A DNA stretch of 64,000 bases from Tubulanus polymorphus. Its lineage: Eukaryota > Animalia > Nemertea. Below the pieces are notes generated by a model. The model was not told the origin of the DNA, did not search any database, and saw only the letters and a program-made list of their open reading frames with translations. The stretch is from the NCBI RefSeq assembly GCF_964204645.1, contig NC_134027.1:22964560-23028559 (forward strand). The letters run 5' to 3'. The position numbers and the translations under genes are program-made. Positions 821 to 60,916 of this stretch are shown here, one piece after another (the first letter of the stretch is position 1; each line of letters starts with the position of its first letter).

Positions 821-3800
821 TACCCCCGATTGGACCAGTCCTAACATCTCAACCAAACACCACCAACAACAACATCGTCGCAGTACAGGAGAATTCACAA
901 TTAACAATCACATGTGACGGTTCACAGTCTGGAGCTACAGGACTGACGTATAAATGGAGTGGTGTCAATCTATCAGGACAGTCTAATAATAAACTCAGTT
1001 TTACACGAATCAGTAAAACTGATTCAGATGTTTATACATGTAACGTATCGAATATAGCGGGATCAGTTGCTGGTAATATTACTATTCAAGTTCTATGTAA
1101 GTATTACGTTAAGATAGATGAACACACGTGATTTACCTAGTATTCATATTAAGCAATTTGTAACAGAAATTTGTTGGAAATAACCCAGTCAATGGATTCA
1201 AAGGAGTTCGTTGTTCAAATCTGTGTTTCATCAATTTCGTTAAAGAAACGAAATATTTATAAGTACCTACCTATATCTGCGTTGAATGCTGAGGAAAACG
1301 CGCGCGACTCCTTTACGGAGTTTATTATGAAGTGCATTTATGAGGCTGAATTATGTTAAAGTTTCAGATTCTATCCTTATCAAATGACATTTGGTCACAT
1401 CGGGATAAAGCAATTATCTAGAATAATGACGTAGGCAAGAAAATATCGTCAGATTACCACAAAATATTAATCTAAACGCGTTTATCCTTTAACCGCGGAC
1501 TCTTCTGAGGCATATTTTACCCTATTCAAACGGGTGTATTCTAGACCCCTTATGTTCCATTAATTATAACATGTATACATATTTCATTCAAATGAATCTT
1601 CCCATCGATCGATATTCACCATATTTTCTCTTCATGAAGTCTATTCGTCACGATTGTGATCGGGTGAGACGCGGCTTTGAAAAATATGCTACAATTTACC
1701 AGCGAACCGGAGCAATTAAAACATCATCAATAACGTACGAGAAATTTATTCAAGCAAAGGCTTGTGCTTTGAATAAATATGATTTTTCAATTCATTTCAA
1801 ATTAATTTGGGCCGGTAATCTGAAATATGAAATTGTACCGAATAATCTGTTGCTGTTGTACATATAACTCATCGATCAAAATAATCGCTTTTTAACACTT
1901 TTAATTTCAGACCCGCCAAATAATGTTACATTACAAGGACCGACGTCACCCGTTCAGGAATCCGTATCTGTTGACTTAACGTGTACAGCTACAGGGGGTA
2001 ACCCGGTACCGAACCTCGCCATAACTAGAACACCAGGTGGCAGCACTGTCAAACAGGGAATAAGCCCTCTAACATATTCAACATCCGCCACTAAAACAGA
2101 TAACCAGGCAGAATATCAATGTACAGCTACTGGGGCTGGTATACCAACACCAATGATTTCAAATAAAGTTAGATTAACTGTCAACTGTAAGTACTGCAGA
2201 TATTTTACAAATTACTCGTTATTCCCATGAAGTAACTGCGGTTCTATTTTTGACATAATTTTGTTTCGTCAACACACACGGATTTTGACAATATCGAGAA
2301 CAAATGATTTCTAGTTCAAGCAACAACGCTGACGATGATGAAGAAACCGGCAGATTATGTATTAGTAAACGATAATCAACAGATAGAGTGTAGAACTGAC
2401 TCGTCAAACCCGGCTGTAGAGATTCAGTGGTTCACATATTCCTTTACAACATGGACACCACTTTCCTCTCAACCAGCTACGAGTCAAACTACTGGAGCCA
2501 ATCACGGGTTTGTGGCTACTAGCGCATTATCTATTACTGCAACTAAAACTATAAATCAAGCTCAATACAGATGTCAAACTGGAAATCTTTACAAGGATAC
2601 AACGATTACCGTTTACTGTAAGTTTAAAATACATTAGTTCTAAAATATATCATTTCAGATCATTCGGAAATATTTTGCACCGGATTAATTACCAAATGAA
2701 ACCTGCTTCTAAACTACACGTAGAGGTTCATTAATGAGAGTGAAATGAGAATTTATATGAAATTCGTTCTATTTTGAATCATGACGTTTCGGCTTCAATT
2801 CTTCAATTTTTTTTCCGCTAGCAAAATATTTTTCTCGTCCATTTCAGATCCGCCAAGCAGTGTTGCATTACAAGGACCGACGTCACCAGTTCGGGATTCC
2901 ATTTCCGTTGACTTCACGTGTACATCTACAGGGGGTAACCCGGTACCGAACCTGCTAATATCTAGAACACCAGTTGGCAGCACTGTGAAACAGGGAGTTA
3001 GTCCTCTAACATATTCAACATCCGTCACTAAAACAGATAACCAGGCAAAATATCTATGTACAGCTTCTGGGGCTGGTATATCAACACCAATGATTTCTAA
3101 TAAATTCGTATTAACTGTCAACTGTAAGTACTATACATTGTTTACAAATTACTCGTAACCTCGTGAAGTTAATTTAGTTCTATTTTTGTGATGATTTTGT
3201 TTCGTCAACATCCTTGGATTTTGACAATATTGAAACAAATTATTTCTAGTTCAAGCAACATCACTGACAATGGTGAAGAAACCGGCAAATCGTGTATTAT
3301 TTAACAATAATCAACAGATGAAGTGTAAAACTGACTCGTCAAACCCGGCTGTACAGATTCAGTGGTTCATATATTCCTCCACCACATGGACAGCACTTGT
3401 CTCTCAACCAACTACGAGTCAAACTAGTGCAGCCTATCACGGGTTTATGGCTACTAGCGCATTATCTATTACTGCAACTAAATCTATGAATCAGGCTCAA
3501 TACAGATGTCAAACTGGAAATCTGTACAAAGATACAACAATTACCGTTCACTGTAAGTATGAAACGCTATTTCAGATATCAAATGAAGTGTTGTAGATTG
3601 TTGTTCATATAAATGCCCTTTCCCTGAATGGCTAATGAAGGAGCGTGAATTTAAATATTTGTTTATAGTTCCACCAGAATCAATGACACTGACTGAAATT
3701 CCAAACGGTCCAGTTGTTGAAGGTACATCTAAAACTCTGACGTGTACAACTGACTCCAGTAACCCGGTGTCTACAATTAAGTGGGCGTACAGCTCTGGGG

Positions 3801-59300: not shown

Positions 59301-60916
59301 CCAGATAAAATCATTGCCTTTTCCCTCGAAATACAGCTTCTACGTGGAATACTGTATCGAAAATACGAAGCAATGTCGATCTACCAAACCGATGGAAAGT
59401 ACCGATGTCCCAATAAATATCATGGTTACTATCGACCCCGATCAAGCATACAGTTACGAGCTGATTGTAACTGAGGGCGGCGACGTCATTGTGAGCCAGC
59501 AGATCCAAATACATGAAGGTAAAGCGTACTTGTACGCGGTGGGACGTCTTTATGTGCCTTTTGATCTTCCTGATGTACATTTACGGCGGTTGGCAATTCA
59601 AGAAATCATTCGAGAAATTATACATGATCAATATATTCTTGATTCTAGAATGAATGTACCATCAACTATTTTTAGTTAAAAGAATTCAATGAACCTATAC
59701 CTTGTCTCAAACAATACGTACAAAATTGTACGCCATTTTTTAGATGATGACAAGACAAGCGAGACATCTTTAATCCCAGCGATTATTGCTGGTGTTGTTC
59801 TTGGTAGCATAGCGTGTACTCTGATGGTGATCTTATTGGTTGTCCTTTTGATAAGGCTGATCAGAAACGGAGGTCTCGTCTTCCTGGACAAATCAAGTGG
59901 AATGTAATTAGTTCTTTTTACATTTGTTGCTCCTATTTTATCTCACCTTCTGGTTGCGACAGCGTTTCGAACAATACCACCACCTGGTGGGTTGATTTAG
60001 AAAAAGAATCTTCCTGATAAGAGTTCGCCGATGATTATTAATACTATTTTAGATCTCTCGGTTACAAAACAACTATGAATAATATAGATCTCAATCTTCT
60101 AATCCACAAAATCATTTTAAAGAAAATTGATCACTTTTTTATTTCAGGAAAACTAAAGCTAACGATTCAACCACAGGTAGATTTTATAGATAGAACAGAT
60201 ATGATACAGTGCTTTTATTTGTGCATGTTTTTCGGGCTTTTTAGTGTTGAATATTTCGTACAATGTGATCGACGAATATCATTGATAATATTGTTAACAT
60301 TCCTGAACGGATTTTGTTTGTATCATTACAGTTTATTCTAACAGCAATGAAAATGAAATTGAAACCAATGACACACATTCACGTACGTAGCATTTGAAAC
60401 TAATATCATATCTGTCATGTGTACCTTTAATACCTGTTGTATATTTCAGGGCCATACGCTGCGGCAACTCCGTATATGAATGTGGCTTTTGGCGGTAAGT
60501 ACGGTACTCCCAAAATTTGTTCCCTCCTGCGATCGTAACAGTTGGTTTAGGTATTTTACGTATGGTTTTCGAGGGCCCTCGAGGGAATCAAAAAATGTAT
60601 TCTTTTTTGTGAATCTTTGATCTTATGATTATTTTTCGTTCTCAAATTTGATATAGTGGTTTTTAATCACTTCCCCTGATATCCTTGTGTATACGTTTTT
60701 ATGAAAGCGTGCTGAAACTCACCGCATCTGGTTTCAAAATGTTCTTAGTCCCTTAATCTCATCGTTGTCAAGAAAATAGCAATTCCTTTACTGATGACCT
60801 GGAACCTGATTGCGAAACCTGCATTCATTGGTTCATTTATTCCAAGAAATATCTTTTCTTCATTTAAAGCGGAGCTTGAAATCGATCCAAACTGTTACGA
60901 AGAAATCAAGAACTAG
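53303..60916 (+). CDS. IgSF receptor copy E (short stalk): SP + V-Ig + 4 Ig + FN3 + spacer + TM + short Tyr tail; 1-nt frameshift in the fourth Ig-type exon
   Basis: Exons: 53303-53311 MFL; 54688-54739 signal [18 protein letters not shown] 55116-55466; Ig 55708-55983, 56888-57163, 57380-57654 (275 nt, frameshift near 57471), 57889-58161; FN3 58525-58830; spacer 59237-59518; TM 59744-59903; tail 60148-60176, 60332-60382, 60450-60494, 60870-60916 (..NCYEEIKN*). Confidence 0.85.
54323..54468. repeat. (TA)n microsatellite, about 145 bp
   Basis: Directly visible; it explains the IYIY ORFs. Confidence 0.98.
55116..55466 (+). CDS. V-type Ig exon of copy E
   Basis: 351-nt open phase-1 exon, paralogous to 34390-34740. 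Confidence 0.85.
56308..56667. mobile_element. Foldback-type MITE
   Basis: Terminal IR atttaaatgaccccagtgaagttcattacttgttc; internal direct and inverted copies of gaattcatctcccaat(a/g)aggaacaagtaac. Confidence 0.8.

Follow-up and report, generated by a model that had tools for sequence, protein, structure and literature searches.

Tail type is uncoupled from ectodomain history in a tandem cluster of V-Ig receptor genes in the nemertean Tubulanus polymorphus

A 64,000-nucleotide stretch of Tubulanus polymorphus contig NC_134027.1 (positions 22,964,560 to 23,028,559, forward strand; hereafter the window) holds five paralogous receptor units, copies A to E, and the start of a sixth, copy F, and is a real tandem V-Ig cluster. 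The general architecture is a signal peptide, a V domain, a varying number of stalk Ig domains, an FN3 domain, an FN3-like domain (the spacer), a transmembrane (TM) segment and a tail, and each extracellular domain of copies A to E is encoded by a single phase-1 exon. The family counts at least 24 RefSeq gene models in T. polymorphus, 22 on a 27.8 Mb sequence and 2 on a 16.5 Mb sequence, with isoforms presumed to group by accession. Within this family, tail type is uncoupled from ectodomain history. The sequence evidence for tail pairing and for the exchange of cassettes is good, and on balance we lean towards reading the family as a set of recognition receptors of immune-type cells, paired as inhibitory and activating members.

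Tails were classified for 22 of the at least 24 gene models, the two later-found models lying outside the classification: 8 carry a long tail, 11 a short tail, 1 a third tail, and 2 have no TM segment. The two tail types claimed in the original prediction are thus present, and are unrelated to one another. A consensus ITIM (immunoreceptor tyrosine-based inhibitory motif) occurs in 8/8 long and 0/11 short tails, and EPIYA-like motifs in 6/8 long and 0/11 short tails. Short tails are characterized by YxN, TxYxNV and a terminal YEEV; YxN and a terminal YE[ED][VI] are found in all 11, and TxYxxV/I in nine. The long tail of copy C contains 13 tyrosines, the ITIM STYSEL, and EPIYAQV plus three more PxYxxV motifs, a number of PxYxxV motifs far above that in shuffled tails (0/5000). 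Grb2 prefers YxN, and Src prefers YEEV. According to PMC3593179, phosphorylated EPIYA segments are bound by Csk or SHP2, and the EPxYAxV form is reported to be under-represented in mammalian proteomes.

Monophyly of the long-tailed genes was rejected by the approximately unbiased (AU) test for the V (p-AU 3.9e-5), Ig_a (9.3e-6) and FN3 (1.6e-5) domains, in trees that excluded third-tail rows and genes without a TM segment or without the given domain. The V tree requires 5 tail-class changes among 12 labelled rows, versus a shuffled mean of 4.1-4.2; its starred branches force at least three changes, and a single change is allowed in 0% of 200 bootstrap trees. V domains are no more alike within a tail class (72.3% identity) than between classes (71.9%). 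Two starred V clades contain mixed tail classes. In the first, P0013 (long tail) and P0029 (short tail), both with intact frames on the second chromosome, share 93% identity in V and 95-98% in four other domains. The second groups copy D with A' and C', near-copies of A and C (near-copies are denoted by primes), at 86-91% V identity, and here long-tailed C' shares 86-88% with short-tailed D and A'. Highly similar ectodomains joined to different signalling modules, as expected of paired receptors, are therefore found in both clades, in agreement with the AU tests, and the ITIM expected of an inhibitory member is confined to the long tails. Because tail and ectodomain are uncoupled, the analogy with immune paired receptors is strengthened.

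Footprints of exchange are found in copies A and C, at or next to the following features:

8283..8390, + strand: tail-swap breakpoint in copy A, with 86% identity to C up to 8283 and then 66% to the D tail region from 8390
34390..34740, - strand: V-set exon of copy C, identified by Pfam V-set match, alignment and fold match
34246..34346, - strand: relic 3' end of a former V exon in copy C, with its own donor, continuous with a D-like intron

Copy A is C-like through the TM exon and D-like from the next intron. The intron following the V exon of C more closely resembles that of E, whereas the intron of the V relic continues as that of D, and the relic is likely the scar of a V-exon replacement. 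At the DNA level, C and D share 79% identity across V, versus 87.5-98.5% across the next 5 kb of stalk exons and introns; synonymous divergence (dS) between them, 0.34 for V and 0.47 for the spacer, is 0.04-0.08 along the central stalk. Given these differences in identity and dS, together with the swap footprints, we conclude that V, stalk and tail have different histories. A bolder interpretation, which we regard as doubtful, is a spiralian germline recognition system of three exchangeable cassettes (V exon, stalk and tail) in which the two parallel blocks (the window copies and their near-copies) would be divergent haplotypes with V alleles 25-30% apart. Matched inhibitory and activating pairs would then arise continually through V replacement and tail swapping, and the whole would amount to a self-nonself complex of KIR/Alr-like kind that a solitary protostome evolved independently.

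If these are paired receptors, the N-terminal V domain, projected from the cell by a stalk whose length varies, would bind ligand through its GFCC' face, and clustering of receptors would lead Src-family kinases to phosphorylate the tail. Long tails, with their ITIM and EPIYA-like PxYxxV repeats, would recruit inhibitors of the SHP2/Csk type, and short tails, with YxN, TxYxNV and terminal YEEV, would recruit SH2 proteins of the Grb2 and Src types. V domains would be re-paired with tails again and again as neighbouring genes undergo unequal crossover and gene conversion, which might be expected where an inhibitory receptor is exploited by microbes and its activating twin acts against them.

The first domain of C matches Pfam V-set at 29.3 bits against a cutoff of 26, and its exon carries a DxGxWxC motif; the first domains of D and E fall below the cutoff. 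Six cysteines are invariant in 14/14 aligned V domains, comprising those of the B and F strands (the core disulfide) and four extra, and the C-strand tryptophan is absent. The one usable V model has a predicted local distance difference test score (pLDDT) of 58.9, and its best structural matches are antibody and T-cell receptor V domains (Z 9.1, root-mean-square deviation (rmsd) 2.4, 98 residues aligned). Because 4/5 V models score under pLDDT 40, strand assignments lean on the DSSP output of one model together with V-set motifs. A V-profile search of PDB sequences returned three weak matches (E about 0.007-0.009). Prediction of a V homodimer scored 0.00 with the alignment not used in the prediction, and is counted neither way.

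The V domains were originally predicted to be the divergent part of the receptors. Family-wide this did not hold, and V was rejected as the most divergent domain: mean identity is 72% for V (13 rows), 62% for the membrane-proximal Ig (18 rows) and 69% for the spacer (13 rows). Within V, entropy averages 0.95 in the predicted C/C'/C''/F/G segments versus 0.48 in A/B/D/E (permutation p 1e-4, descriptive only as the sequences are related), so that variation concentrates on the predicted GFCC' face. Between C and D, nonsynonymous change is concentrated on this variable face (p 3e-9) and synonymous change is not; no such concentration is seen between D and E. For the V framework, two of the three pairs give ratios of nonsynonymous to synonymous rates (dN/dS) of 0.16 (p 1e-4) and 0.24 (p 0.01); the ratio is 0.16-0.36 for FN3 and near 1 for the central stalk exons among A, C and D. 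Positive selection was not shown with the three V DNA sequences. Variation on one face of an N-terminal domain in a lineage-restricted family would also suit receptors for gamete or species recognition that sexual selection drives to evolve fast, although lengthy signalling tails of two classes, and their re-pairing, would not be expected of gamete adhesins, and we consider this explanation highly improbable.

The stalk is built of six Ig exon types in varying number, with 2 to 10 stalk Ig domains across the V-bearing, membrane-anchored family models. Stalks had been described as near-identical, which is accurate for the central Ig run of A, C and D (83-98% amino acid identity) but not for E (54-89%). 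Among PDB sequences, C matches SYG-2 best (E 5e-18, confined to the Ig stalk) and next a number of further neural proteins of the immunoglobulin superfamily (IgSF), and RefSeq automatic names within the family include nephrin-like, syg-2-like, contactin-like and NCAM-like. GFCC' binding faces and tyrosine tails are also found in wiring molecules. These observations favour a surface identity or adhesion code, derived from a nephrin/SYG-2-like ancestor and acting in neural wiring or at epithelial junctions, with stalk length setting intermembrane spacing. We find this unlikely: the matches to SYG-2 and neural IgSF proteins are weak and partial, and a species-restricted expansion, damage to 4/5 window copies, interchangeable tails and mixed pairs better fit immune-type turnover. 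Orthology to nephrin or SYG-2 was rejected, the family being multi-copy and variable in Ig number and the SYG-2 match spanning about 160 of the 1432 residues of C in its best stretch. With at least 24 models and no full-length 1:1 orthology, the locus is, as originally proposed, not a single-copy nephrin or hemicentin-type gene. Short relics of Ig_c-type exons in stalk introns (C 28726-28786, D 44588-44646, A 4203-4267) mark lost stalk domains.

The spacer of C has no Pfam match; its predicted fold is confident (pLDDT 91.8) and matches FN3 domains (Z 9.5, rmsd 2.8, 89 residues aligned). It is predicted to be a second, divergent FN3-like domain that is invisible to Pfam.

24241..24519, - strand: spacer (FN3-like) exon of copy C, by predicted fold

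An FN3-like spacer, a V domain without the C-strand tryptophan, and a domain order with one exon per domain like that described for Hydractinia Alr (10.1101/2022.03.04.482883) bring to mind an Alr-like histocompatibility locus, in which a polymorphic V domain would bind its own allele on another cell and tails would decide between acceptance and rejection. Two pairs of near-copies, C/C' and E/E', are 98-100% identical in the membrane-proximal Ig and spacer and 71-76% in V, as divergent alleles would be. For the nemertean Lineus, rejection of grafts is reported to show memory, although the text describes it as xenogeneic (PMC2248247), and V, spacer and tail queries returned no protein from Lineus or any other non-Tubulanus source. 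The Ig domains of Alr proteins number 1-3 and often lack the core disulfide, which the T. polymorphus V domains keep; strict ITAMs (immunoreceptor tyrosine-based activation motifs) occur in 0/20 tails, dN/dS across V is 0.57-0.79, and the V matches looked up gave no sequence link to Alr. T. polymorphus is a solitary animal, which weakens the analogy with colonial fusion. An Alr-like role is in our judgement improbable. Of the lineage-specific recognition locus first proposed, a multi-copy, recombining and species-restricted family remains, and allorecognition specifically is so far unsupported.

Several observations weigh against paired immune-type receptors as well. The single ITIM match in the C tail is not above chance (p 0.36, shuffles), YxN also occurs in 6/8 long tails, and TxYxxV, a motif of the switch type, can have an inhibitory action as well. 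The canonical ITAM or charged TM residue expected of an activating member is lacking: the strict ITAM as defined in the Alr paper (YxxI/L-x6-9-YxxI/L) is found in none of the 20 tails, which contain only variants with V at +3, and no charged residue is present in the TM segments inspected. The term "activating" therefore rests on non-canonical motifs. The adjacent pair C/D shares only 69% V identity, while classical pairs homogenise the binding domain. The whole-V dN/dS given above is below 1, and on the variable face, a partition chosen once the alignment had been seen, the ratio is 1.44, 1.36 and 0.45, none significantly above 1. The usable V model is of low confidence, and among solved structures the stalk is matched best by SYG-2. 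In addition, some RefSeq models may be chimeric, namely four of six listed C isoforms and the distal tail of C'.

The isoforms in question (P0022 and P0025-P0027) end in tail exons matching the neighbouring gene P0035 instead of the window exons at 23146-20579, and the distal tail of C' matches P0039; these are either annotation chimeras or real long-range tail choice. In a further isoform of C, P0024, an alternative terminal exon at 23230-23289 (- strand) truncates the tail before the ITIM and EPIYA-like repeats. The family models P0003, P0017 and P0042 are without a TM segment and may be secreted decoys or gene fragments.

The family appears confined to T. polymorphus. The V exon of C as query recovered 17 proteins among 104 candidates, all from RefSeq T. 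polymorphus, and V, spacer (best 7996 candidates scored) and long-tail queries found no specific relative outside this species, within the limits of search sensitivity and nemertean sampling. Among 61 representative matches to V, 8 are from T. polymorphus; most others align with multi-Ig proteins over no more than a short region about the F-strand motif, and none outside the species is full-length and V-specific. Ten of the 61 were looked up and none was named Alr, no direct pairwise comparison with Alr being made. The nearest ESM Atlas clusters are generically V-set-like, the top one unnamed, with Mollusca the commonest phylum (phylum known for five members), and serve as a lead only.

Near-copies exist of A, B, C and E and of the neighbouring gene (P0035/P0039 98.9%, B/B' 96.8%), and this block may be a segmental duplicate or an uncollapsed haplotype. 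The near-copies, the many frameshifts and the central stalk dN/dS near 1 are compatible with a mostly neutral, unstable region of segmental duplication, in which the gene count would partly reflect a second haplotype and mixed pairs would be by-products. We hold this to be very unlikely in view of the constrained V framework (2/3 pairs) and FN3, the 93% long/short pair with intact frames on another chromosome, and raw reads. In the independent run X5 (90% likeness), 119 reads align at an FN3 site, against 14-40 at sites in the tail and about 2-4 at the C 5' end; with ectodomain depth several-fold that of the tail, the multi-copy state is not a feature of this assembly alone. At many tail sites, the sequences of runs X1, X2 and X5 depart from that of the window, and joints in the raw-read alignments are not GT-AG splices. 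The stretch covered by about 2-4 X5 reads, 35069-36700, holds the C leader and promoter, which are possibly divergent or absent in that animal.

The copies and their parts are as follows:

821..10823, + strand: copy A, with 8 stalk Ig exons, FN3, frameshifted FN3-like exon, TM and short-type tail; 5' end outside the window
7658-7928, + strand: FN3-like exon of A, 271 nt, with frameshift
8143-8281, + strand: TM exon of A, C-type
13126..16797, + strand: copy B, a relic with one Ig exon, Ig and FN3 exons that are broken, an FN3-like exon that is intact, TM and short tail
20579..36411, - strand: copy C, intact, with signal peptide, V, 8 Ig, FN3, FN3-like, TM and long tail
36412..37350, no strand: head-to-head gap of 939 bp between the start codons of long-tailed C and short-tailed D
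37351..51301, + strand: copy D, with 10 Ig besides V, FN3, FN3-like, TM and short tail
37351-37362, 37694-37745 and 38671-39014, + strand: first exon, signal peptide exon and V exon of D
53718..60916, + strand: copy E, with signal peptide, V, 4 Ig, FN3, FN3-like, TM and short tail; RefSeq P0016
53718-53729, 54688-54739, 55116-55466 and 57380-57654, + strand: first exon, signal peptide exon, V exon and frameshifted Ig exon of E
63003..63014, + strand: first coding exon of copy F, with intact donor; the remainder would fall beyond the window

The exon model of C consists of 22 exons with 21/21 GT-AG introns, and its 1432-residue product is identical to XP_074646830.1 (RefSeq P0023). Copy E agrees with P0016 at 97-100% per exon. 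On inspection, P0034 reads as D, modelled without signal peptide and V, and P0036 reads as B, which has stops and lacks signal peptide and V; P0038 covers the 3' part of A, the signal peptide and V of which lie upstream of the window. Copy F was located by a first-exon pattern scan (2 matches versus 0.09 expected). The leader of D and E is of a different type from that of C, their signal peptide exons not being recovered by DNA similarity to C. The gap between C and D is a candidate shared promoter. A 138-bp repeat with 96% identity is located in the 5' region shared by C and D (36814-36951) and downstream of the first exon of F (63861-63998). Upstream of the signal peptide exon of E, 54150-54468 is a partial duplicate of an E intron and Ig exon start (93% to 56733-56897), ended by an (AT)n tract of ~150 bp. 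The post-V introns of C (33560-33850, - strand) and D (39550-39900, + strand) contain a degenerate reading frame that gives the impression of a retroelement fragment.

Five complete genes were rejected. While the five paralogous units of the original prediction and its Ig counts including V (9 in C, 11 in D and 5 in E) were confirmed, the full layout it assigned to all five is intact in C alone, and the birth-and-death decay it noted is evident as frameshifts in A, D and E and the relic state of B. The V exon of D is 344 nt, with a 1-nt deletion at the end of V and a stop at 39009, and a GC donor at 44420-44421 replaces the GT of A and C, an exon skipped in P0034. In E, the frameshifted Ig exon is 275 nt and the first exon lacks a GT donor. 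Lesions of a single base may be fixed, polymorphic or errors of assembly. A pair of tail mini-exons is triplicated in A (9019-10530), one copy with a stop codon. Omission of the damaged exon leaves an open frame in D (without V) and in E, and in A when one stop-bearing tail exon is also omitted; therefore, exon skipping could keep products of D, E and A alive.

Clusters of paired inhibitory and activating Ig receptors have already been described in vertebrates, Botryllus and Hydractinia. Literature searches, which did not extend to subscription journals and bioRxiv supplements, brought up neither a description of such a cluster from a nemertean nor a paper that treats Tubulanus together with immunoglobulin. 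The family is real, lineage-specific and apparently undescribed, and is concealed as one family by the RefSeq labels "nephrin-like", "contactin-like" and "NCAM-like". With nephrin and SYG-2, the best PDB sequence match, it shares a multi-Ig stalk with C2-set-like domains, FN3, TM and a tyrosine-rich tail, and it differs in being multi-copy and species-restricted with a variable number of domains and two tails, the similarity being limited to short Ig stretches.

By layout, the family resembles Hydractinia Alr, and membership is not claimed. Both have a V-set first domain without the core tryptophan, Ig domains, an FN3-like spacer, TM and a tyrosine-bearing tail, with one exon per domain, in a cluster with pseudogenes. 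T. polymorphus differs in that a canonical FN3 is added, the stalk holds 2-10 Ig domains, the core disulfide is kept along with four extra cysteines and strict ITAMs are lacking, and the V matches looked up showed no sequence relationship; the 9, 11 and 5 Ig domains of C, D and E exceed the 1-3 of Alr, many of which are without the core disulfide. Botryllus fester/FcoR is likewise an IgSF family restricted to its lineage, spread over two chromosomes and bearing tyrosine motifs of both inhibitory and activating kinds; there, however, receptor and coreceptor are separate cognate genes, FcoR with Sushi domains (PMC12582321), whereas T. polymorphus unites binding domain and tail in one chain.

With vertebrate paired IgSF receptors, which include SIGLEC11/16, SIRP, CEACAM, LILR and KIR, the family shares an N-terminal V, an Ig stalk, a gene cluster and similar ectodomains with opposite tail classes. 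SIGLEC11 and SIGLEC16 form a head-to-head pair with conversion and a broken partner (PMC5701461), and in T. polymorphus C and D lie head to head, short-tailed partners are broken, and conversion is indicated. Differences from vertebrate paired receptors include two FN3-type domains, stalks of up to 10 Ig domains, and the lack of a strict ITAM and of any DAP12-type charged TM residue seen; moreover, the C/D conversion tract covers the stalk and spares V, and the likeness is without demonstrated homology. If the paired-receptor reading is true, the same receptor logic arose in a spiralian, with an unusual inhibitory tail of EPIYA-like repeats, and the genes named here would be candidates for the basis of nemertean graft rejection and for invertebrate immune checkpoints.

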